DNA from: an uncultured Bacteroidales bacterium
Lineage (GTDB): Bacteria > Bacteroidota > Bacteroidia > Bacteroidales > P3
Assembly: GCA_900315335.1 (NCBI GenBank)
Contig: OMYR01000018.1
Coordinates: 3,516-67,515, forward strand
Reading direction: 5' to 3'
DNA length: 64,000 bases
Shown here: one piece after another, positions 3,001-52,497 of the stretch
How the letters are laid out: each line of letters opens with the position of its first letter
How positions within the stretch are numbered: the stretch's first letter is position 1
The notes under the pieces: generated by a model
The model's input: the letters and a program-made list of their open reading frames with translations, nothing else
Databases searched by the model: none
What the model was told of the DNA's origin: nothing
Program-made: the position numbers and the translations under genes

Positions 3001-5266
3001 TTTTCTTGTAAAAGACCGTCCATTCTGCTGCAATATCACCATATTGAGACCAAGTTACCTCAGCGGAATTTGTAGTTATTTCACTTACGGCAATATTGTT
3101 AGGTGCAGGACATTCCGGAACTTTATCCAAAACTATATCATCAATGTACCAAGCATATCCGTATGTTTTTGTAGGGTATTTGATAACAGGATAATAAACT
3201 ACACCGTCTTCCACTTCAAAATCCAAACCGGAGAATATAACGTCATATGGTTTATACTCCGTATTTGCCAATTGGGTGGCAACTATTGTCTTTGCTACAT
3301 GGAAAGAAGTTGTATCGTTCAAATCGGTCATAACACCTATCTCGATTTGTCCGTAAGATTGAGTAGTACCTCCCGGTTTAATGTAAGCGGACAATTGAAG
3401 ATCCTTTATATTTCCTTGGTAACCCGGTAATGCAACCATATTGCCATTGGATGTTGTGTTATAAAGTCTCATGCAATTATTTCCGTTGTGTGCTGAATAA
3501 TTTAAGACGTTTGGATAACTATCGTACGAGGTTTGGGCTTTTTCCAAGATTGTCCAGCAGGCAATGTTCATCAACGAATAATTCGCAGCCGTTTCGTTTT
3601 CAAAATCCATCTGATAAGGCAAAGTCGATTCAACAATTGCTTCACAAGGAGTCTTGAATGAAATCGTTGCAACATCCGTAGGTGTTCCGTCCGAACAGAA
3701 ACCTGCTATTGTAACGGTGTATGTCGTTAAAGTCGTAAGTTCCGTCAAATCATAATTTGTTTCCGTAATGTCGGTAAGTGAGGCAACCTCCGTATTGTTT
3801 TCATCTTTCACCGTAATGTTGAATGTAGCGGCTGTTGAAAGCCAACTCAAATTTGCACTTGTAGCCGTCAAGTTGCTTACGGTAAGGTCTGACGGTCCTT
3901 TGCAATCCGGAGTTATCATAACCTGTACACTATCTATATAGTAAAAATTATAGGAAGAAGTTACACCGGAATTTTGGCGTATCGCTATATAAGGAGTGCC
4001 TTCAACTTGCTGCAATTGTTCTGCATAATAATCCAAATCCGCAGTGTATTTTTTCCAAGTGCTTGAGGCTTCTATCGTTTTCAATGCAACAAAAGTGGAA
4101 GAGTCTTCCAAATCCGTTATGTAACCTATCTGCAAGGAGCCGGAATTAGCCGATTCGTATCGTGCATACAATGAAACTCTTAAAGTCGATAAATCATTTG
4201 TAAATTTTGGTAAAGCAATTATAGGTTTTTGGCAATTTGCTGAAGCATACATAGCAAGGGCTTTTGTCCCACCGTTTGCATATATTGATGCAACGTTTGA
4301 CGGATGATTATCGTCTTGCGAAACCATCGTTAAGCAGTTGGGAAAATCTGACACTTGATAAGATTCAAAATCTTCTACATATGTATTTTGTTCATCTATG
4401 GTCAGTTCATCCAAACATTGTGTGGTAAAAGTTCCCAAAATCCATTGACTTGTTCCATCGGTGCCGCAATTGGATCTCAGTTTGTATTTGTAATTCGTTC
4501 CCGGAAGTAGATCGGAAAGCGTAATCGAGTTTGTTTCGCTCGAGATGTTGTCATCATTCCAATCGGCAGTAACCAACTCGTATTCGAAATCATAACTGTC
4601 GGCAGAACCGGTGAAACTAAGTGTTCCGTTATCGGTAACGAACGAACTTACGATATCGGTAGGTGCCGGACAATCGACGTTAGGGATGAAGACATCATCA
4701 ACGTAAATTCCTATACCGTTATTATCCACTACGTGAAATGCAATATAAATGTTTTGCCCGTTATATTCCGACAAATCTATATCATACTTTTGGTAGGTGT
4801 CCGACAAATCAATCGCTTGGATTTGTGTGAAATTTGCCGTGTCGCTTGTTGATGTTGAAACTTCAATGTAGAGTTTGCTATCATCAGCGAAATTAATGTT
4901 CCCTAACTTAGCATAGAAAGACAATGTCATTCCGGTTTTGGCAGCAATCTGCGGAGTAATCAAAAAATTACTGCAACCGCTATAATCATAATCGTGTCGG
5001 GCACAGTAATACCCGGTATGATAATAGTAGGAATGAGCCGACCATTGGGAGGTCTTAGTACCTTTAATTTCCCAACCGTCAGGAGGAAAAGTGTTCTCAA
5101 ATCCTTCCTCCAAAGAGGTTATTTGAGAATATCCGCTTAATGAGAGCAACGTCATAAGCAGACAAAACATAGGAATAACTCCTTTACGTACAGCCCGCAC
5201 AAGGGATCGGATACAATCCGTCCGCCATCGGCTGGATCTCGTTTGAAGATCATGTGTTTTTTTCAT
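1..5266 (-). CDS. Giant modular secreted/cell-surface protein, first 1755 codons (3' end lies beyond the left window edge)
   Basis: Absent from the ORF track because there is no stop inside the window. The minus-strand frame from ATG 5266-5264 stays open to nt 1 in my hand translation. Both ends were checked codon by codon: MKKTHDLQTRSSRW...MFCLLMTLLSLSGYSQ (signal-like) at the start and ...TLALREVYTGTSYWSWGID at nt 58-2. A WYIDD(V/I)-type motif recurs at about nt 780, 1540, 2355, 3145, 3937 and 4700 (760-815 nt spacing). Each copy is followed by P(D/E)C and an Fn3-like segment (e.g. ATLTWQ, YEVYV). The + strand ORFs at 668-3657 are antisense to it. Confidence 0.8.
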   Translation of the reverse strand, partial: MKKTHDLQTRSSRWRTDCIRSLVRAVRKGVIPMFCLLMTLLSLSGYSQITSLEEGFENTFPPDGWEIKGTKTSQWSAHSYYYHTGYYCARHDYDYSGCSNFLITPQIAAKTGMTLSFYAKLGNINFADDSKLYIEVSTSTSDTANFTQIQAIDLSDTYQKYDIDLSEYNGQNIYIAFHVVDNNGIGIYVDDVFIPNVDCPAPTDIVSSFVTDNGTLSFTGSADSYDFEYELVTADWNDDNISSETNSITLSDLLPGTNYKYKLRSNCGTDGTSQWILGTFTTQCLDELTIDEQNTYVEDFESYQVSDFPNCLTMVSQDDNHPSNVASIYANGGTKALAMYASANCQKPIIALPKFTNDLSTLRVSLYARYESANSGSLQIGYITDLEDSSTFVALKTIEASSTWKKYTADLDYYAEQLQQVEGTPYIAIRQNSGVTSSYNFYYIDSVQVMITPDCKGPSDLTVSNLTATSANLSWLSTAATFNITVKDENNTEVASLTDITETNYDLTELTTLTTYTVTIAGFCSDGTPTDVATISFKTPCEAIVESTLPYQMDFENETAANYSLMNIACWTILEKAQTSYDSYPNVLNYSAHNGNNCMRLYNTTSNGNMVALPGYQGNIKDLQLSAYIKPGGTTQSYGQIEIGVMTDLNDTTSFHVAKTIVATQLANTEYKPYDVIFSGLDFEVEDGVVYYPVIKYPTKTYGYAWYIDDIVLDKVPECPAPNNIAVSEITTNSAEVTWSQYGDIAAEWTVFYKKTTDTEWTEETANETTYTLNDLASGTDYEVKVASVCGESVLTSNEKVTFKTQCVPLTMDDLPYYNGFENETKGLMPNCWSAPIAYLSGSVSYPSVYDYTARTGSKDIYFSNGTSSTLMITLNGYQGDITELQLVAWAKPNGTTSSYGKMQVGFMTDNTDTNTFVVVKEYLATDWPSSVYDEMITPFNTLEDFTADVDAVYYPAIKYISGGNYYQWYIDDVTLEIIPECAKPTKLAATPDAITSTTATLTWQQSDENTSWVVYYKKTTETEYQTQTVSGTPTITLTDLNPATIYDAYVEVVCAENVASNPIQFKTACPDEITITDNDKYIEDFETYIVGATPDCWTSMTPVSSSYYTSGVVSQSKSGNNSFRLYIPYQDYGANGTTQPMYALPKFSNDLETLRLSFYAKVSSSYSCGDLQIGYLTNLTDTSSFVLLKSYTASEVGSSWNLLKINMADFSETIVADESTDKYIALRHNKPGYTGYSELSCYIDSLSVGLAPSCSDPNGLVVSDIDVTSANITWNGDASSYNVKVVVDGTNEVIINETNVTENTFAIENLTDNTSYVASVTGVCEDGGLTDPISALFHTRCVAMDIPWETSFEDLNTTSLYYCWTKLNTASYNPTISGYNSKTGANSMYFYTHSGDNTIIALPRFTEDITTLRLTFNSKPTGNASSYGRMRVGLTNSLNMADTANIVYVWEKSATQYPSTNYFEEVVDFGEATIDGENIYIVFNHDNASSAAWYIDDVSVDLIPDCDKARNLKITDVTAESATLSWTVTGSQTDFNVYYKKTSDMNYSEATADGLTASLTDLEASTEYEVYVKNTCDDGTTKISETIKFKTPCAAITIDGENNYVQDFESYNNLARVDCWEVVAEASSYPIKVITESKFIHSGSKALKITSNEATPNSIISLPQFTNDLSTLRVQFYGKSEGPNGGDMELGYITDLNDPTSFVALASWPKTQTTWTLCKTDLSTYSEQLENAGSVTLALREVYTGTSYWSWGID

Positions 5267-5532
5267 TTTAGTAAAATTTTATGTTCAACAATAAATTATT
5301 TGCAATATCCATTCGCAAAACAAATCGCAAAGATACATATTTTCTCAAATATAAAAACGAAAATTTTATTTTTATATTGCAGTTCTTGTTAAATATTCGG
5401 TGATAATGGATGTTATCGGTTGATTGTTTTATTGAAAAATTTCTTTTTATTGCAATCGAATTTTTTTTGATGACACATATTTATTCTTTCGAAATATCAA
5501 AATAAAAAATCATAGGTAATATCGGTTTATTG

Positions 5533-5596
5533 GTGTTAAATATTATTTTGGTAATGTTTAATACTATTTCAACGATGTTTAATACTATTTCAGATA
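5533..5596. repeat. 21-bp-phased repeat array, locus A (3 units)
   Basis: Units are GTGTTAAATATTATTTTGGTAA / TGTTTAATACTATTTCAACGA / TGTTTAATACTATTTCAGATA. Units 2 and 3 start at 5555 and 5576, exactly 21 nt apart. Lies upstream of the giant gene and downstream of pcm. Confidence 0.75.
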
Positions 5597-10531: not shown

Positions 10532-13500
10532 ATGAAAGCGAAATTACATATATTTTATTTACTGATAATCCTTGCAACGACTGTTTTTTCGCAAGAAAGA
10601 AAGGTATATATCAAAGAATTTGAAGAGTTTAATCTCGTCCCCATTCTTGCGAACAATCAAACATTTTACACTATTGATTTAGGGAAAGATTTTCGTAATT
10701 CAAATTCAGTAGCCCAGGCCCAATTGCCATTGGAAAATTCATTGGTTACTTATGAGCTTGATAGCGATATTCAAGTTAATGTTATTGTATTGGAAAAAGA
10801 TACAATCAAGATAAAAGACAATATATTGATTTATCCTATCCAAAAATCCAAAATAAAAATCGATACAACATATTCCTTTGTCATTGACAAGAAATATTAC
10901 ACTACCGATGCTTTTCAAGGAGAAAATCTCGTCAAAGTTGATAAAATCGGAGTTATGCGTAACCAAAACGTTGCGGTGGTATCAATCTCGCCATTAAGAT
11001 ATAACCCCGTAAAAAATTTGATTGAAAGGGTAAAAAAACTGCAAGTTGAAATCGTTTCTGTTAAAGATACTTCTTCGGCAGAAGCACATAAAAAAAACCT
11101 TTCTGCCACAGTTTCTCAAACAAATGCTAATTTACCATTGAAATTGGCTATTGTTACCAATGAAGCGTTTAAGGGAAATTTAGCACCTTTTGTAAAATGG
11201 AAAACAATGCAAGGTTTTGAAGTCTTGGAACTATATACCTCTCAAATAGGTAGCGATACGACTCAAATCCGTTCATATCTAAAAAATCTATACACATCAT
11301 CTACGCCTCTGAATACCCCGATAGATTATCTGTTGATTGTTGGCGACACGAACATTGTGCCAACCTTTAAGGGAAAATATAGAATAGAAAATTACCCTGC
11401 ACATTACACTGATTTATATTATGCAGAATACACAGGGGATATACTTCCCGATGCTTTCTATGGCAGAATCTCTATTTCGGATACTCAAACGTTGAACGCT
11501 GTTATTGATAAGACTATAAAATATGAGCAATATCTTTTGGGAGATACGTCATATTTGAATAGTTCGTTATTGGTTGCCGGCAAGGAAGGCTCGGACAATG
11601 CTCCGACTATGACAAACGGACAAAACAATTATCTGAAACATTATTTCCAATCACTAACCGATACAAACGTATATTACAATCCTACAAGTGCTGATAATTC
11701 CCATAAACCGCTTATATACGAAAAACTTTCTTTGGGTAATTCTTTTGTTAGTTATACGGGACACGGCAGTTTTATGGGTTGGCAAAATCCGCCATATAGA
11801 GTAAAGGACGTTGATACTTTGCTAAACAATGTCGGCAAATATGGAATTTTTGTAAATAATTGTTGTCATACGGGGCAGTATGATATGCCTGTTTGTTTTA
11901 CGGAAAGTCTTTTGCAAGCAAAAGATAAAGGCGGAGTGGCGTGTATAGGTTCTTCGGATTACACTCTATGGGACGAGGATTACTATTGGGCAGTCGGCTA
12001 TAAGGATATATCATTGAATCCACAATATGATGCAACCAAATTGGGAATGTATGATAGATTGTTTCACACCCATAATGAAATATTTTTGCAGCGTTATATT
12101 ACTTCTGCTCAAATGGTTCAGAGTGGCAACTTGGCAGTTACTCAGTCTTTGTCGCCATATTACAAGCATTATTGGGAAATGTATAATTTGCAAGGAGACC
12201 CCACTCTTATGCCGTATATAGGAATTCCGAAAACCTTTGAACGGAATTTTCCCGACACATTAATTGTCGGCAAAAAAAATTTAAGTTTCGTGGCAGAGCC
12301 ATATACATATGTGGCTTTGAGTGATGATAACGGTTTGATAACATCTGTTCAAGCCGATTCGCTTGGTGATGTCGATATTGATTTGACTGATATAACCGAA
12401 GCCAAAACGGTAAAAATCGTGCTGACCAATCAATTCTATTGTCCTTTGATTGATTCCATTGTTTTTACGTCCCCGAAAAATGCGTTCGTTGTTTTGAAAA
12501 ACATAAAAATCAAAGATAAAACGACAAATCAAGAAGTGGAAAATCTTTTGCAAGGCGAGCAATATATAGTGGATATTGATGTTACAAATGTGGGTTTAGC
12601 TGATTTGAATGGCGAAAATAATTACATAAAAATAATCACTGATACTGTTTTACTGATGTTAAACACTAATTCATCAGTGTTAAACACTAATTTACCAATT
12701 ACTCACATTAATTCTTTGGAAACACTTCATTTTTCAGACGCATTTGAATTTACTGTAAAAGGTGGGGTTAAAAACTTTTCGTTGGCAGATATTACTTTCG
12801 AGATTTATCAAAATGGAGAAAAAACCAATGAGAAAAAAACAGCGAAAGAAGTATTTGCTCCTCAATTATCCATAAACTCCGCTTCGATGAGTAGAAAAGA
12901 TAATGCTATCTCGCTAAAACTTTTGCTGCAAAACATAGGCAGGCAACCGTCTTCGCAAGGCAGCATCGAGATTGGTGATTTGTCAAGCAATATAAGTGTT
13001 GTTGATTTTATAAATCCAATCAAGTCTTTGGGCGTAAATGAAAAGGATACTGTGAATTTTCAAATTATGTTAACGGATACCACTCAAAGCGGAATTTCGT
13101 TTGATGTGAATTACACGGCAGGAGATTACAATGTTTTGAAATCATTTGATATTGATTTGAAACCAAAGATTGAGGGTTTTGAAAATGGTTTTACTTCATT
13201 GGATTGGCAAAATGATGAAACGAATGCGTGGGTTATAGATTCCACAACATCTTTTAGTGGAAAATATAGTGCAAGGAGCAAAGTGAATTTGGCACACAAC
13301 AAGCGTTCAAGACTTAATTTGAATGTGAATAACGCCGTGTCTTCGACTATTTCATTCTATGCTATGGTGTCAAGTGAAAAGGATTATGACAAATTAGTGG
13401 TCTATTTGGATAATGAGCCTATGTTTGATTTGAGTTTCGGGTATAATGATTTGGGATTGCTTGAAGGCTGGAAGCAATATAGTTTTCCTGTTTCCGACGG

Positions 13501-13867
13501 CAGCCATACGGTCAGTTTTTCTTATGAAAAAGATCAGTCCAACTCTTATGGTGAGGATTGTGCAAGGATTGATAATGTTGTGTTAAGTGTTTGTTCGGAT
13601 TCTGTTGTATTCGGTTTTGACGATTTGATGCAAAGCAATATTGATATGTTCCCAAATCCTGCTGCAAAGACGATAAATTTGAATAATCTGCCACAACATA
13701 ATACCGTAACCATAATAGACAATAACGCAAGGGCGGTTTATTGTGATGATAACATAGGGGAGAGTAAGCAAATAGATATTTCGTTTTTGGAAAACGGAGT
13801 TTATTATGTTGTAATTACCAATCGAAACATTGTTGTGGATAGACGAAAACTTATTGTTGCAAAATAA
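10532..13867 (+). CDS. Peptidase C25 (gingipain/PorU-like) family protein with T9SS C-terminal sorting domain
   Basis: 1111 aa with a signal peptide. Candidate His/Cys dyad contexts are SYTGHGSFMGW and IFVNNCCHTGQYD. A MAM/lectin-like module is present (EGFENGFTSLDWQNDETNAWVIDS...YEKDQS...ARIDNVVL). The C-terminus ISFLENGVYYVVITNRNIVVDRRKLIVAK is a type-A CTD. The ORF contains repeat locus C in frame. Confidence 0.75.
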   Translation: MKAKLHIFYLLIILATTVFSQERKVYIKEFEEFNLVPILANNQTFYTIDLGKDFRNSNSVAQAQLPLENSLVTYELDSDIQVNVIVLEKDTIKIKDNILIYPIQKSKIKIDTTYSFVIDKKYYTTDAFQGENLVKVDKIGVMRNQNVAVVSISPLRYNPVKNLIERVKKLQVEIVSVKDTSSAEAHKKNLSATVSQTNANLPLKLAIVTNEAFKGNLAPFVKWKTMQGFEVLELYTSQIGSDTTQIRSYLKNLYTSSTPLNTPIDYLLIVGDTNIVPTFKGKYRIENYPAHYTDLYYAEYTGDILPDAFYGRISISDTQTLNAVIDKTIKYEQYLLGDTSYLNSSLLVAGKEGSDNAPTMTNGQNNYLKHYFQSLTDTNVYYNPTSADNSHKPLIYEKLSLGNSFVSYTGHGSFMGWQNPPYRVKDVDTLLNNVGKYGIFVNNCCHTGQYDMPVCFTESLLQAKDKGGVACIGSSDYTLWDEDYYWAVGYKDISLNPQYDATKLGMYDRLFHTHNEIFLQRYITSAQMVQSGNLAVTQSLSPYYKHYWEMYNLQGDPTLMPYIGIPKTFERNFPDTLIVGKKNLSFVAEPYTYVALSDDNGLITSVQADSLGDVDIDLTDITEAKTVKIVLTNQFYCPLIDSIVFTSPKNAFVVLKNIKIKDKTTNQEVENLLQGEQYIVDIDVTNVGLADLNGENNYIKIITDTVLLMLNTNSSVLNTNLPITHINSLETLHFSDAFEFTVKGGVKNFSLADITFEIYQNGEKTNEKKTAKEVFAPQLSINSASMSRKDNAISLKLLLQNIGRQPSSQGSIEIGDLSSNISVVDFINPIKSLGVNEKDTVNFQIMLTDTTQSGISFDVNYTAGDYNVLKSFDIDLKPKIEGFENGFTSLDWQNDETNAWVIDSTTSFSGKYSARSKVNLAHNKRSRLNLNVNNAVSSTISFYAMVSSEKDYDKLVVYLDNEPMFDLSFGYNDLGLLEGWKQYSFPVSDGSHTVSFSYEKDQSNSYGEDCARIDNVVLSVCSDSVVFGFDDLMQSNIDMFPNPAAKTINLNNLPQHNTVTIIDNNARAVYCDDNIGESKQIDISFLENGVYYVVITNRNIVVDRRKLIVAK
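12637..12714. repeat. 21-bp-phased repeat array, locus C (inside the C25 peptidase CDS, in frame)
   Basis: Sequence CACTGATACTGTTTTACTGATGTTAAACACTAATTCATCAGTGTTAAACACTAATTTACCAATTACTCACATTAATTC, translated TDTVLLMLNTNSSVLNTNLPITHINS. Closely matches the reverse complement of intergenic locus D (CTGATGTTTAACACTATTTTATTAATCACTCACATTAAT). Confidence 0.7.
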
Positions 13868-17499: not shown

Positions 17500-17583
17500 A
17501 TTAAAAAATTAGTGTTTGACATTAAAAAATTAATGTGAGTGATTAATAAAATAGTGTTAAACATCAGTTTTGCGATAAGTGAT
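17500..17583. repeat. 21-bp-phased repeat array, locus D (4 exact-phase units)
   Basis: Units are ATTAAAAAATTAGTGTTTGAC / ATTAAAAAATTAATGTGAGTG / ATTAATAAAATAGTGTTAAAC / ATCAGTTTTGCGATAAGTGAT, starting at 17500, 17521, 17542 and 17563. Confidence 0.8.
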
Positions 17584-20195: not shown

Positions 20196-20268
20196 ATAAA
20201 ATTAGTCTCAGTAATTGTAAAAATAGTTTCACTAACTAAAAAATTAGTTTCACTAATCAATTAACTGA
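20196..20268. repeat. 21-bp-phased repeat array, locus E
   Basis: Sequence AAATTAGTCTCAGTAATTGTAA / AAATAGTTTCACTAACTAAA / AAATTAGTTTCACTAATCAA. Unit starts at 20199, 20221 and 20241. Confidence 0.75.
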
Positions 20269-26193: not shown

Positions 26194-26278
26194 CAAGTGT
26201 TATCAGTTTTTTAGTGTTAATGATTATTGTCGTGATGTGAGAGATTAATTTTTTAGTGTTAAACACTATTTTGATAAA
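26194..26278. repeat. 21-bp-phased repeat array, locus F
   Basis: TTAGTGTTAATGATTATTGTCGTGATGTGAGAGATTAATTTTTTAGTGTTAAACACTATTTTGATAAA. The two TTAGTGTT words start at 26211 and 26253, which is 42 nt or 2 x 21. Confidence 0.75.
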
Positions 26279-26317: not shown

Positions 26318-27973
26318 TTATGCAAATACAGACGTAAATTCAAATGACTTCGCATCAAACAAACCCTTATCGCTGAGTTTTATTTCGGGGATTACCAAAA
26401 GAGCCATAAACGCCATAGTCATAAACGGTGCATTCATCTTGCAGCCCAATGATTTGGCAAAATTATTCAGGCTTTCATACTTGCTTGAAACAACATCTAT
26501 TGTTTCGTTACTCATAAGTCCTGCAATAGGTAGTGGTAGAGTTTCTGTTTTTTCTCCATTTGTAATACATATACCACCTTTGTTTGCAACGAGTTGGTTG
26601 ATAACTTTAACAATAAGTTCATCGCTTGTTCCAACGGCAATTATGTTGTGGGAATCGTGGGCTATCGTAGAAGCCATTGCACCATTCTTTAATCCGAAAC
26701 CATTAATGAATGCAACGGCAGGCTTTGTATTATTGTACCTGTTACATACCACCAATTTCAAGATATCGTTCTTTGTATCGGATACTACAAAATTATCTTG
26801 GATTTTAGCATTACAAACAATGCTTTCTGTATATAATTCCTTGTCTTTGGCTTTAATTACTTTGATTGCAGATGTTTGAGCAATTAATTTAATATCTGTT
26901 TCAGTGATTTCGCTTCTGTTGAAATTGTTAATAATATTTGTATTATCGCTAAGTAAATCGTTGCAAACAAGATTATTATTTGTCTTATCAAAGACTTGTT
27001 TGCCCGAAATGAAAGTAGATTGTATTTCAAAGTATTTTAGATTATTTACAACGATAAAGTCTGCTTGGTCGTCTTTTCTCAGTATTCCGATTGGTAGTTT
27101 GTAATGTGAGATAGGATTTAACGAGCTTGTTTGCAGTATGTTGAATAAAGACAATCCTTTTTCCATACTTCGCTTTACGAGTGTATCAATATAAGAATTT
27201 TGAAGTTCGTTCGGGTGAATGTCATCACTGCAAAACATAGTCATTGTAGGGTATTTGTCAATCAGTTGCCATAGATTATCAAAGTTTTTTGCAGCACTGC
27301 CTTCACGAATCAAGCACTTTATTCCATATTTTATTTTAGTCTCCGCTTCAACGTATGAAGAACTTTCATGGTCAGTGGAAATACCTGCAAGCGAGTATGC
27401 TAAAATATCTTTGTCCTCTAACATCGGAGCATGGCCGTCAATAGGTTTTCCGACTTGTTTGGCGTATTCGATTTTCCTTAGCACTTCCTCGTTTTTGTTC
27501 AATACACCAGGAAAATTCATCATCTCTGCAAGAGCGTATATCTCCTTTTTCTCCAACAATTGTTTGACGTCTTGGCTGTTCAAGGTGTAGCCCGAAGTCT
27601 CGAAATTCGTTGCCGGAACGCAAGAAGGAGCCGTGAAAGCAAAATGAAAACACGATTGTTTGCTGTTTTCAATCATAAAATTTATTCCTTGCGTACCACA
27701 CACGTTTGCTATCTCGTGAGGATCGCATACAGCACCTACAATACCGTGGCGTACAGCTTCTTTTGCATATTGAGGGGGCAATAGCATTGAACTTTCAATA
27801 TGAACATGGGAATCAATCAAGCCGGGAAGAATATATGGTGCGTTGCTATCAATGTCGGGTATTGGAATAATATCCTCAATCTTACCATTCTTAACGTACA
27901 ACTCTCCATCTATAAGTGTTTTGTCTGCAACGGATAAGATATGTCCTTTTATTACGAAATTATTGTTTAACAT
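26318..27973 (-). CDS. ade: Adenine deaminase
   Basis: Amidohydrolase motif GLIDSHVHIESS, then CDPHEIANV and DGHAP. Start moved to ATG 27973 (MLNNNFVIKGHIL). The 21 extra codons in the ORF track are read-through of repeat locus G. Confidence 0.85.
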   Translation of the reverse strand: MLNNNFVIKGHILSVADKTLIDGELYVKNGKIEDIIPIPDIDSNAPYILPGLIDSHVHIESSMLLPPQYAKEAVRHGIVGAVCDPHEIANVCGTQGINFMIENSKQSCFHFAFTAPSCVPATNFETSGYTLNSQDVKQLLEKKEIYALAEMMNFPGVLNKNEEVLRKIEYAKQVGKPIDGHAPMLEDKDILAYSLAGISTDHESSSYVEAETKIKYGIKCLIREGSAAKNFDNLWQLIDKYPTMTMFCSDDIHPNELQNSYIDTLVKRSMEKGLSLFNILQTSSLNPISHYKLPIGILRKDDQADFIVVNNLKYFEIQSTFISGKQVFDKTNNNLVCNDLLSDNTNIINNFNRSEITETDIKLIAQTSAIKVIKAKDKELYTESIVCNAKIQDNFVVSDTKNDILKLVVCNRYNNTKPAVAFINGFGLKNGAMASTIAHDSHNIIAVGTSDELIVKVINQLVANKGGICITNGEKTETLPLPIAGLMSNETIDVVSSKYESLNNFAKSLGCKMNAPFMTMAFMALLVIPEIKLSDKGLFDAKSFEFTSVFA

Positions 27974-27977
27974 TATT

Positions 27978-28061
27978 AAAATAGTTATGGAGATTAATTT
28001 ATTAGTGTCCATAACTATTTTAATAACTATGGACACTAATTTTTCAGTTATTGAGATTATT
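27978..28061. repeat. 21-bp-phased repeat array, locus G (4 exact units, palindromic pair)
   Basis: Units are AAAATAGTTATGGAGATTAAT / TTATTAGTGTCCATAACTATT / TTAATAACTATGGACACTAAT / TTTTCAGTTATTGAGATTATT. Units 2 and 3 form ATTAGTGTCCATA...TATGGACACTAAT, with perfect 13-bp arms. Confidence 0.8.
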
Positions 28062-32416: not shown

Positions 32417-33628
32417 CTAAAAAATCTCAGTTAAAATCTTATTTGTCGCTCCTATATTTTCTTTAACATAAGCCCCTGCAATATTAGCGGTATTCGTGTA
32501 AATAGTTTCATTATTCAGTAAATTAGTTAGCCACACTGATAAATTAGTTTCATTGATTATTTCTTTGGCTCCACCAAGTGCGATAAGGTCTTGTGCTTCT
32601 TTGAATTTTTTATTATTAGGACCGAAAGCAACAGGTTTATTGAATACCGCCGCTTCCAATATGTTATGAATGCCTGCTCCAAAACCGCCACCGATATATG
32701 CAATGTCGCAAAGAGAATATAAAAACATAAGCATACCTATATTGTCTATGATAAGCACACGATAGTTTTTCGCATTTTCTTCACTTAAAGACGAAAAAGC
32801 AATACTATTGTCAAACTGCGAAAGTAGTGCTGATATATGATTTTTATCTATCAAGTGCGGGGCTAATATAATCTTCAAATCGTTTAGATTATCCGTTGCC
32901 TTTTTGATTATTTTCTCGTCCTCAGGCCACGAACTTCCTGCGATAAAAACTTTCTTGCCGTCGATGAATTTATTTATTATAGGAAAAGTTTTATGCTCTT
33001 TGCTCATAGAATAAACTCTGTCAAAACGGGTATCGCCACATATTTTGTTATTTGTGTAGTTTATCGAATTTAGAAGAGATGCCGTTTTTTTGTCTTGGAC
33101 AAAAAACATATTGAAATTACTTAACTGCTTTCTGAACCAAGATGAGTAAGATTTGAAGATATAATGCTTTTCCCTCAAAATAAGACTTACCGAATACAAT
33201 GGAGTGTTCTTTAATTCGAAGATATAGTTCCACCAAAATTCGTATTTAACGAAAAACACCATATCGGGTTTTGTCAAAGCGACGAAACGTTTTGCATTTT
33301 TTATTGTATCAAAAGGCAGATAAACGACACAATCGGCATAAGCATAGTTTTGTCTTACTTCATAGCCGGAAGGAGAGAAAAAAGTGAGTAGTATTTGGTA
33401 TTCGGGCTTAGTTGTTTTGATTTCTTCGATAAGATTTCTTGCTTGTTCGAACTCACCAAGCGATGCACAATGAAACCACGCTGTTTTTTTGTTTTTATCC
33501 AATAGCGAGAGTTTTTGCCACGTCTGACTTTGTCCTTTACACATCGTGCGAATTTTTTCGCTGAACAATGCAGCAATATTACACGCAAAAGAAAAAATGA
33601 TTATACCTAAATTATATATAAGTCTCAT
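32417..33628 (-). CDS. waaA: 3-deoxy-D-manno-octulosonic acid (Kdo) transferase
   Basis: 403 aa. WFHCASLGEFEQARNLIEEIK matches the KdtA N-terminal signature. C-terminal GGGFGAGIHNILEAAVFNKPV. Confidence 0.85.
   Translation of the reverse strand: MRLIYNLGIIIFSFACNIAALFSEKIRTMCKGQSQTWQKLSLLDKNKKTAWFHCASLGEFEQARNLIEEIKTTKPEYQILLTFFSPSGYEVRQNYAYADCVVYLPFDTIKNAKRFVALTKPDMVFFVKYEFWWNYIFELKNTPLYSVSLILREKHYIFKSYSSWFRKQLSNFNMFFVQDKKTASLLNSINYTNNKICGDTRFDRVYSMSKEHKTFPIINKFIDGKKVFIAGSSWPEDEKIIKKATDNLNDLKIILAPHLIDKNHISALLSQFDNSIAFSSLSEENAKNYRVLIIDNIGMLMFLYSLCDIAYIGGGFGAGIHNILEAAVFNKPVAFGPNNKKFKEAQDLIALGGAKEIINETNLSVWLTNLLNNETIYTNTANIAGAYVKENIGATNKILTEIF
32498..32565. repeat. 21-bp-phased repeat-like array, locus H (inside the waaA 3' coding region)
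   Basis: Units AATAGTTTCATTATTCAGTA / AATTAGTTAGCCACACTGATA / AATTAGTTTCATTGATTATTT. The third unit matches locus K (AAATTAGTTTCATTAATCATTT) at about 20 of 23 positions. Confidence 0.5.
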
Positions 33629-38382: not shown

Positions 38383-38470
38383 AAAATTAGTGTTAAGCAT
38401 TATCAAATTAGTGTTAAACATTGGTAAAATAATATTAAACATCAGTAAAACGATTAGTGGTACCGTGATT
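38383..38470. repeat. 21-bp-phased repeat array, locus I
   Basis: Units AATTAGTGTTAAGCATTATCA / AATTAGTGTTAAACATTGGTA / AAATAATATTAAACATCAGTA / AAACGATTAGTGGTACCGTGA. ATTAGTG words start at 38386 and 38407. Confidence 0.8.
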
Positions 38471-43244: not shown

Positions 43245-43335
43245 ATAATGTTTAACACTAAAAAATTAATCTCTCACATTAATAAATTAGTGTTAAACAT
43301 TAAAAAATTAGTTTCTCATACTGTAAAACCGATTA
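43245..43335. repeat. 21-bp-phased repeat array, locus J (clearest palindromic words)
   Basis: Units AATAATGTTTAACACTAAAAA / ATTAATCTCTCACATTAATAA / ATTAGTGTTAAACATTAAAAA / ATTAGTTTCTCATACTGTAAA, starting at 43245, 43266, 43287 and 43308. Confidence 0.8.
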
Positions 43336-45965: not shown

Positions 45966-46088
45966 ATTTGAATTTGTGTCGTTCCGCACTGCCATTAATA
46001 TATAATGATGTACTTCTTTCGTCCCATTGTCTTTAATTTTTATTTGAAACACCCCATTTTTTATCCGCTACACGCCACTTAGAGTTTC

Positions 46089-46295
46089 AAATACGCAGGT
46101 TTGTGTTCCAAACACGGTAGTTCTCGTTCCAAACACGGAGGTTCGTGATGTATATAGTACTATATAGCGACTATATATAGTACTATATAGTAACCGTATA
46201 TAGTACTATCTGCGTCACGAATCTCCGTGTTTGGAACGAAAACCTGCGTGTTTGGAACGAGAACTACCGTGTTTGGAATATAAACCTGCGTATTT
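46089..46295. repeat. 207-bp composite inverted-repeat element (iteron arms plus three central palindromes)
   Basis: The left arm AAATACGCAGGTTTGTGTTCCAAACACGGTAGTTCTCGTTCCAAACACGGAGGTTCGTGATG matches the reverse complement of the right arm, except that the right arm carries one extra unit of about 21 nt (GCAGGTTTTCGTTCCAAACAC). The centre holds TATATAGTACTATATA at 46151 and 46174 plus a partial copy at 46197 (23-nt period). Confidence 0.85.
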
Positions 46296-46402
46296 TTATT
46301 AAAAACTGCCGTATCTTGAATGAGAAATAAAGAATCCGCCGATAGTTCTACCGACGGATTCTCAAAAAATGAACAATTAGGTAATGAAATTTGTTTGCCA
46401 AA

Positions 46403-52390: not shown

Positions 52391-52497
52391 AAAAATAATT
52401 TCAATAACCAATAAAATAATCTCAATGATTAGTAAATTAGTTTCATTAATCATTTTGCTGATGTTTAACACTAATTTTGCAATAACACTTATTAATT
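52391..52497. repeat. 21-bp-phased repeat array, locus K (divergent queA/ackA intergenic region)
   Basis: Units AAAATAATCTCAATGATTAGT / AAATTAGTTTCATTAATCATT / TTGCTGATGTTTAACACTAAT / TTTGCAATAACACTTATTAAT. Confidence 0.75.

Follow-up and report, generated by a model that had tools for sequence, protein, structure and literature searches.

In-frame occurrence of dispersed repeats within bacterial genes is known from the Rickettsia palindromic elements (RPEs), which are single elements of about 100-150 bp located between genes as well as in frame within unrelated housekeeping genes (PMC10969869). Here, a related case is described for an uncultured rumen bacterium of the order Bacteroidales, in which arrays of tandem 21-nt units are dispersed throughout the genome and one of these arrays is located in frame within the gene for a C25-family (gingipain-like) cysteine peptidase. 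The stretch of DNA that was analyzed (64,000 nucleotides, referred to as the window) corresponds to C24:3516-67515 of genome G000, a metagenome-assembled genome (MAG) of 2.13 Mb in 66 contigs, whose nearest public relatives are the uncultured rumen and gut Bacteroidales MAGs Phil12, RGIG5007, and RUG501. All genomes used for comparison are MAGs, and the relatives were sampled as stretches of 38-200 kb. We consider it probable, at roughly 0.58, that the repeat segment in the peptidase gene represents a resident copy from a family of non-coding, minisatellite-like arrays found throughout the genus, and that this copy sits on an ancestral hairpin and follows the evolution of the family through copying at the DNA level.

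Other dispersed repeats offer further points of comparison. The mycobacterial interspersed repetitive units (MIRU) have a size of 40-100 bp and occur at about 40 loci within operons, where they carry coupled small open reading frames (ORFs); we know of no case in which MIRU have been rewritten inside conserved enzymes. Uptake signal sequences and DNA uptake sequences (USS/DUS) are relatively evenly distributed. In Pasteurellaceae and Neisseriaceae, they accumulate in place in coding DNA, where they favour certain frames and residues of low conservation (Findlay & Redfield 2009, PMC2817400). Between 35 and 65% of these single motifs, which comprise 9-12 nt and extend up to about 29 nt, are located in ORFs (PMC2817400). 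For the 21-nt array family, no published description was found in the literature on RPEs, Bacteroidetes, 21-bp repeats, minisatellites, and uptake sequences.

The peptidase gene (10532..13867, forward strand) encodes 1111 amino acids. Its translation contains GHG and NCCHTG motifs, recognized by eye, and the Pfam domains Propeptide_C25 (PF08126; 2.7e-13), Peptidase_C25 (PF01364; 3.7e-55), Peptidase_C25_C, an immunoglobulin-like (Ig) domain (PF03785; 2e-07), and Por_Secre_tail (PF18962; 1.2e-09). With its propeptide, catalytic, C-terminal Ig, and C-terminal sorting domains, the gene product is predicted to be a C25 (gingipain-like) cargo protein of the type IX secretion system. Intact orthologues are encoded in 20 genomes of the genus, the one in genome G003 being 93.8% identical at the nucleotide level, and a search of 5.8 billion proteins for orthologues returned only a G003-like protein. 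The 78-nt segment that a first-pass annotation had reported to lie in frame within this ORF was indeed located at 12637..12714 on the forward strand, where it encodes residues T703-S728 (TDTVLLMLNTNSSVLNTNLPITHINS). Between G000 and G003, only 1 of its 78 nucleotides differs, compared to 6.2% across the whole gene.

Analysis of G000 with Tandem Repeats Finder (TRF) revealed 738 tandem arrays, of which 330 have a period of 21 and 31 a period of 42, in agreement with the proposal of a 21-nt unit that preserves the reading frame. Intergenic and coding regions were distinguished with a crude, greedy longest-ORF map (86% coding) rather than with proper gene calls, and according to this map 262 of 331 merged arrays are intergenic. 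For defining the family, a position weight matrix (PWM) with the consensus TTTAYTAATGTTTAACACTAA was trained on 236 intergenic arrays (614 units), and at least three consecutive units matching this PWM in 21-nt register at ≥30 bits were required. Triplet-shuffled genomes peaked at 14-25 bits and contained no position with ≥30 bits. Scanning of G000 for three-unit runs above this threshold yielded about 308 distinct loci, whose arrays comprise 3-7 units each and about 1,110 in total. In each unit, a T-rich spacer precedes the 15-nt core, which is often palindromic. Among the cores of G000, 46% belong to the palindromic class GTTWAAC, 21% to the class CACTCAC/GTGAGTG, 5% to TTATTGAG, and 28% to others, and different classes are often found within one array. 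A 7-nt tandem sub-period was not detected by TRF in the family arrays, which have a period of 21, so they do not qualify as heptamer simple sequence repeats. The consensus unit has only one open frame per strand, reading LLM[FL]NTN on the T-rich and LVLN[IT][NS]K on the opposite strand, and the arrays therefore share the peptide flavour that had been noticed in their read-through. Selection for translatability was rejected as an explanation because four of the six frames of the consensus unit are closed.

By PWM score and core identity, the flagged segment is a member of this family, which substantiates its proposed relationship to the intergenic repeats. Three successive units in the register of the family, each with T-rich spacer and 15-nt core, extend over 12649..12711 (forward strand) and reach 58.0 bits (23.6, 18.6, and 15.8 bits for the single units), compared to at most 25 bits in shuffled sequences. 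This value corresponds to rank 67 of 677 hits genome-wide and is the third best among the arrays scored within the window. The peptidase cores GATGTTAAACACTAA and AGTGTTAAACACTAA agree in every position with variants of the unit that recur between genes, and the core AATTACTCACATTAA has a single mismatch to AATCACTCACATTAA. The closest match of the segment is the reverse complement of an intergenic array at 17524-17563 (85% over 40 nt), as the first-pass annotation had stated for its locus D, and the shared word GTGTTAAACACTAAT (up to two mismatches) occurs 13 times in the window compared to 0.31 expected occurrences.

At the level of the peptide, four heptads can be distinguished, all encoded on the forward strand. 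Heptad 1 (ITDTVLL; 12635..12655) is a degenerate unit, which in a codon alignment corresponds to xSDxNLL of the orthologues. It is followed by heptad 2 (MLNTNSS; 12656..12676) with the core ATGTTAAACACTAAT and by heptad 3 (VLNTNLP; 12677..12697), whose core of the palindromic class matches the query word GTGTTAAACACTAAT exactly and which constitutes the unit with 18.6 bits. Heptad 4 (ITHINSL; 12698..12718), the unit with 15.8 bits, has the core ATTACTCACATTAAT of the CACTCAC class, one mismatch from the recurrent unit AATCACTCACATTAA, and its residues INS are conserved among orthologues.

Nineteen orthologues from the genus (36-93% identity) align through the segment, and the sole indel is heptad 2 with 21 nt, which is common to G000 and its sister species, represented by the 93%-identical G003. 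A segment of equivalent length is also present in ten homologues of greater distance, which belong to other genera and families (e.g., TNDPYVT-LTDTVQS-WGDIANG), and nearly all of the orthologues and homologues align here without gaps. In an AlphaFold2 model of residues 560-900, which was based on an alignment of 21 sequences and has a mean predicted local distance difference test score (pLDDT) of 88.9, three Ig-like sandwiches are formed. The segment contributes strands 698-703, 707-709, and 720-722 of one β-sandwich, with heptad 1 forming the end of the first and the start of the second of these strands. Residues 713-717 are the only internal stretch with a pLDDT below 50 and represent the tip of a hairpin loop, which is lengthened by the extra heptad. 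A Foldseek search against the PDB retrieved only generic Ig, macroglobulin, and integrin sandwiches. The segment overlies an ancestral β-hairpin of an Ig-like sandwich downstream of the C25 catalytic and Ig domains. Two expectations of the first-pass annotation were not confirmed by these results: only 7 amino acids (21 nt) are additional and the remainder of the approximately 26-aa segment is homologous, and the segment is composed of β-strands and a hairpin within one domain instead of a surface loop between domains.

The other genomes of the genus carry arrays of their own. In samples of 120-200 kb, arrays with a period of 21 or 22 are dominant in all relatives, and the units are species-specific, namely AATGTTTAACACTAA in G000 and G003, TTCTTTTCTGAAAAGAAT in G019 and G010, and ATTAATCAGCGATAAAAAT in G002. 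Such dialects are also found at the peptidase site, which contains GTGTTAAACAC in G000 and G003, TTTTCAGAAAAG in G019, and ATCAGCGAT in G002. The corresponding heptads are FSEKNLL FSEKNFF FSEKDFG in G019 (L010), ISDKNLL ISEDNLL ISDIISG in G002 (L009), and VSEEDLV VSEEDFF FSQESSL in G011 (L007). When one mismatch was allowed, the peptidase cores of G000 matched 159-182 times in their own genome and 19 times per 200 kb in G003; G019, G002, and G010 contained no match. The G019 peptidase core was found 14 times per 200 kb in G019, where all matches are intergenic and located on another contig, 15 times per 120 kb in G010, and practically not at all in the remaining genomes; that of G002 was found 7 times per 200 kb in G002 and nowhere else. 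Accordingly, nt 2075-2157 of the coding sequence scored 52-63 bits with the PWM of the own family in G000, G003, G019, and G002 and at most 20 bits with those of unrelated dialects. Intermediate scores resulted when the G014 sequence was compared with the G002 PWM (37 bits) and the G011 sequence with the G019 and G010 PWMs (27-35 bits).

Because the site carries the dialect of the respective genome, the repeat family appears to have overwritten an ancestral coding hairpin; as judged from these orthologous sequences, the pattern suggests that an ancestral coding segment was rewritten in situ, and not that a single insertion took place. It had been proposed that a homologous peptide in orthologues lacking intergenic copies of the repeat would identify the segment as ancestral coding sequence. 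As worded, this test is inapplicable, since the orthologues with a homologous segment possess intergenic repeats of their own.

The arrays occur genus-wide, and some palindromic 21-nt arrays (TATTTTCAAGGCTTGAAAGTA) are also present in G022, which represents a sister genus of the same family. Essentially no 21-nt arrays were found in G023 and G024 from further genera of this family or in samples from two other families. Palindromic cores are common in G000, G019, and G022, whereas the cores of G002 are non-palindromic. Contig C11 of G019 (L021-L030) contains a second repeat type, the composite motif GTTTTCAGAAAAGAAAAATAAAAAACATATGTATTTTTTCA, which includes the G019 core and is found in at least five spacers within 200 kb (e.g., at 3960, 72260, 86559, 97715, and 182051).

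Turnover of the arrays can be followed between G000 and G003, for which 29 loci were compared that had both flanks within 200 kb of G003. No length difference was seen in 15 of these pairs, and in 4-5 pairs one array has a single 21-nt unit more than the other. A 143-nt array-bearing block in G000 (C56:6747-7049) is absent from the orthologous spacer of G003. In an ORF encoding a Mur-ligase fusion, the array at aa 146-166 (C56:16441-16503 in G000) has been rewritten, consisting of three units in G000 and of four units with different cores in G003; the two genomes share about 95% identity in the coding DNA on either side. Within G000, exact strings spanning several units are shared between arrays: at k=30, 91 arrays share such strings compared to 36±7.5 when units are shuffled among arrays, and exact 42-mers are common to 8 arrays compared to 0.3 expected in the same shuffling. 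Two loci, C56:81808-81870 and C35:1350-1412, contain the same three-unit block, which is identical over 63-68 nt and idiosyncratic in its cores as well as its spacers. As its flanks at the two loci are unrelated, this block proves that whole array blocks are copied and pasted between loci.

Family copies are also found in other coding genes, and colonization of genes in frame, as suggested by the first-pass annotation, is evident for AroC and MurE. AroC carries a clean three-unit insertion of 20 amino acids (aa 170-190), and MurE a loop insertion of about 19 amino acids (aa 97-117), both restricted to G000 and G003; MurE of other species has different short insertions in the same loop. In AroA (EPSP synthase; aa 268-288; C13:9606-9668), the length is unchanged relative to 20 orthologues and exceeds that of PDB entry 5xwb by only five residues. 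Its array has three cores in 21-nt phase, and the spacers retain the ancestral Gly-Ala and Glu-Thr codons. Since AroC and MurE gained length and AroA did not, the family both inserts into and overwrites coding sequence. Additional in-ORF arrays are located in linkers of PolA (aa 321-341) and FtsK (aa 333-353) and in an SBP_bac_5 protein (aa 165-185). In total, 38 loci with ≥30 bits fall within the crude ORFs; several are deep inside recognizable genes, and many of those near 5' ends reflect over-extended ORFs rather than genuine coding copies. A weak, 31-bit family-like stretch was also seen near aa 1114-1134 of a 1245-aa ORF (C65:2083-5820), which resembles Cas12a by eye only.

Overall, the arrays are about 40-fold depleted in ORFs. 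Their density of about 0.8-1.1 per kb does not depend on whether a spacer is tandem, convergent, or divergent, and neither orientation is preferred, for which reason a role as terminator or promoter is unlikely and was rejected. An Rfam scan of the window detected only a tRNA and no array family, and no consistent RNA fold was obtained, with z-scores of -1.1 to -1.7 for three of four arrays tested. This distribution fits a non-regulatory element that is filtered by selection.

For the peptidase gene, the following sequence of events may be proposed. The site would have turned array-like early in the clade L001-L010, and ectopic conversion or template switching from other arrays would then have kept it matched to the evolving family of the respective genome. 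Replication slippage could have supplied the extra unit. The segment is translated in the one frame of the T-rich strand that contains no stop codon (..LLM[LF]NTN..), and selection at the protein level would act only as a filter for an open frame, a near-constant length, and a tolerated hairpin, so that the peptide itself would be without function.

Several observations weigh against such a resident copy maintained by DNA-level copying. Rewriting was directly seen in only 1 of the 29 G000/G003 pairs, and the peptidase array itself differs by just 1 nt between these genomes. Point divergence within stable arrays is 4.9% and not above the 6.2% of their flanks, which suggests that rewriting is episodic; point hypermutability of the arrays was rejected on the same grounds. 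The two copied loci inspected had neither terminal inverted repeats (TIRs) nor target site duplications (TSDs), a search with PF01797 detected no gene for a Y1/RAYT (REP-associated tyrosine transposase) protein in G000 while the controls were positive, and no enzyme or mechanism for the copying, including a transposase, was found. Several lineages may have replaced the same site independently. In addition, the pattern in AroA is not easily explained by block copying and, in its sequence, looks like an in-place drive towards the motif. Finally, the arrays of G000 are more evenly spaced than in a null model in which arrays were placed at random with one per spacer (400 runs): the coefficient of variation (CV) of the inter-array gaps is 0.67 compared to 0.89±0.05 (null minimum 0.74), which a purely selfish element would not predict. 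At a median gap of about 4 kb, 3.1% of the gaps exceed 12 kb (8.5% in the null model) and 4% are shorter than 1.5 kb (17-19%). The in-ORF arrays contribute to this pattern by filling half of the gaps above 12 kb, and leaving them out doubles the long gaps. The same trend was observed in G003 (CV 0.71 compared to 0.92±0.15, p ~0.06), and spacing was not significantly even in the TRF-based samples of G019, G002, and G010. We regard even spacing as a lead and not as a result.

These observations bear on a different explanation, which we regard as possible but hold only tentatively, namely that the arrays are phased candidate binding sites for a species-specific DNA-binding factor and that selection or molecular drive shapes these sites in place. 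Candidates for this factor would be a nucleoid or chromosome-organizing protein or a receptor for USS/DUS-like DNA uptake, which would encounter a core every two helical turns; where long genes leave no spacer, sites would be built in tolerant coding segments such as the peptidase hairpin. The in-place rewriting of AroA with its in-phase cores and retained spacers, the species-specific dialects with many palindromic cores (G000, G019, and G022), and the even spacing in G000, to which the in-ORF arrays contribute and which G003 shares as a trend, favour this explanation. It is further supported by the equal density in every spacer type, by the constant length of the peptidase site under changing dialects, and by the precedent of uptake sequences, which accumulate in place at poorly conserved coding positions (PMC2817400). 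Weighing against it, unrelated core classes coexist in one genome and often in one array, and the identical multi-unit blocks with their idiosyncratic spacers at unrelated loci result from copy-paste and not from convergence; these two findings favour a resident copy instead. Moreover, the even spacing does not reach significance in the samples of three genomes, no candidate binding protein was identified, and the cores of G002 are not palindromic. The two explanations are not mutually exclusive. A wider form of the binding-site explanation, according to which the arrays would be evenly spaced, phased recognition sites of a fast-evolving DNA-binding system throughout the genome, which could be a chromosome-organizing protein or a receptor for DNA uptake or self-recognition, and coding segments such as the peptidase hairpin and AroA would be remodelled where spacers are lacking, appears rather doubtful to us.

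The model originally put forward, a single RPE-like insertion of a mobile element of about 78 nt into a previously uninterrupted peptidase gene, draws on events that did take place elsewhere, as indicated by the clean insertions in AroC and MurE, the 143-nt block absent from G003, and the proven block copying. At the peptidase locus, it is improbable, because homologues carry an aligned segment of matching length, relative to which just 21 nt have been added, G019, G002, G011, and G014 have array-like sequence of other dialects at this position, and the segment forms strands of a folded domain. The idea of RPE-like in-frame elements can thus be retained for the family and has to be abandoned for the peptidase, where an ancestral segment gained one unit. 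Even less credible is a heptad peptide repeat (x-S/T-D/N-x-N-L-L) that is selected at the protein level and whose AT-rich codons mimic the intergenic repeats by chance. A weak xxDxxxx periodicity of the outgroups in this region would agree with it, as would the family spacer AAT-TTA-TTA, which reads N-L-L with common codons, but in three independent lineages the 15-nt cores show full identity to intergenic units specific to the respective genome, which goes far beyond codon bias, and peptide differences between species mirror those of the DNA dialects exactly. The randomness at synonymous sites of the segment that this explanation requires is not observed. An assembly or binning artefact, in which repeat DNA was mis-joined into the gene, is conceivable for a MAG of 66 contigs, as repeats can cause mis-joins. 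Its probability is close to nil, since the same 1111-aa ORF with a segment differing by 1 nt is present in an independent MAG from GenBank (NWBO01000141, 'Bacteroidales bacterium Phil12'), the reading frame is uninterrupted, and the model of the domain has high confidence.

With a resident, DNA-copied array as the preferred explanation, the relationship to the described systems can be specified. Like RPEs, the arrays are a dispersed, non-autonomous family found between genes and in frame within genes at permissive regions of the protein, and no transposase gene is associated with them. The peptidase copy conforms to this as it lies in an intact ORF and its extra unit is modelled as the tip of a hairpin loop. 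An insertion relative to orthologues without the element, as is typical for RPEs, is observed for AroC and MurE and not for the peptidase. Since the family colonizes other genes in frame, the comparison with RPEs is fair for the family as a whole. In contrast to RPEs and in-frame MITE-like insertions, which have palindromic or TIR ends with or without a TSD, the elements described here are arrays of 3-7 tandem 21-nt units that lack TIRs and TSDs at the copied loci, several copies, including those in the peptidase and in AroA, overlay ancestral coding sequence rather than adding to it, the in-gene copy shifts its dialect together with the genome-wide family, and the phylum is Bacteroidota. We read this case as RPE-like in-frame repeat colonization with concerted evolution.

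The arrays share with USS/DUS the species-specific dialects, the presence of hundreds to thousands of copies, and the absence of a transposase. The in-place rewriting of AroA and the tentative even spacing in G000 would also recall USS/DUS. The arrays differ from them in their phased tandem organization, their strong depletion in ORFs, and the copy-paste of multi-unit blocks. The repetitive extragenic palindromic (REP) sequences, bacterial interspersed mosaic elements (BIMEs), and REP doublets forming hairpins (REPINs) are likewise species-specific, short palindromic extragenic units with hundreds of copies in spacers of all orientations. Assignment to the REP/RAYT systems fails because G000 has no RAYT gene; in addition, the units described here are arranged head-to-tail with a strict 21-nt period and not as inverted doublets, and they have in-frame coding copies. 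Like MIRU, whose unit number varies between strains, the arrays are a dispersed minisatellite family in spacers.

About a dozen loci in the window were found to share the 21-nt register. By PWM, intergenic arrays are located on the forward strand at 5526..5588 (52.8 bits), 26207..26269 (47.6 bits), and 27998..28060 (40.7 bits). The last of these is open on both strands and falsely extends the N-terminus of the ORF at 26318..28036. On the reverse strand, intergenic arrays are located at 17509..17571 (55.3 bits; locus D, the closest single match to the peptidase copy, in a convergent spacer), 20202..20264 (40.6 bits, with cores of the TAGTGAAAC type), 38387..38449 (61.7 bits), 43245..43307 (61.9 bits), and 52395..52457 (37.6 bits, in a divergent spacer). 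A weak three-unit array of 25.5 bits at 32502..32564 (reverse strand) is situated in the 3' part of the ORF for a Kdo transferase (waaA; 32417..33628) and may be another in-frame copy. The convergent spacer between the genes for a C69 peptidase and a flavodoxin contains an imperfect palindrome of about 290 nt (46037-46329), whose arms consist of 21-nt units (..GTTCCAAACACGG..) and whose centre consists of TATATAGTAC-type repeats with a 23-nt period; with -0.7 bits by PWM, it falls outside the main family.

In the peptidase gene, a dispersed repeat family and a translated segment are shown to evolve in concert at one codon-resolved site, and the hairpin site is a natural marker for the rate and the route of short-repeat copying around a bacterial chromosome. 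Housekeeping enzymes such as AroA, AroC, MurE, PolA, and FtsK tolerate this repeat traffic, and the arrays add lineage-specific peptide loops to surface proteins. For genome annotation, it is relevant that the arrays give rise to spurious ORFs and that other ORFs receive a false N-terminal extension from them, and in rumen metagenomes the arrays could act as markers for species and strains. Should a binding function underlie the even spacing and the in-place rewriting, the arrays would belong to an undescribed chromosome-level recognition system in Bacteroidota.

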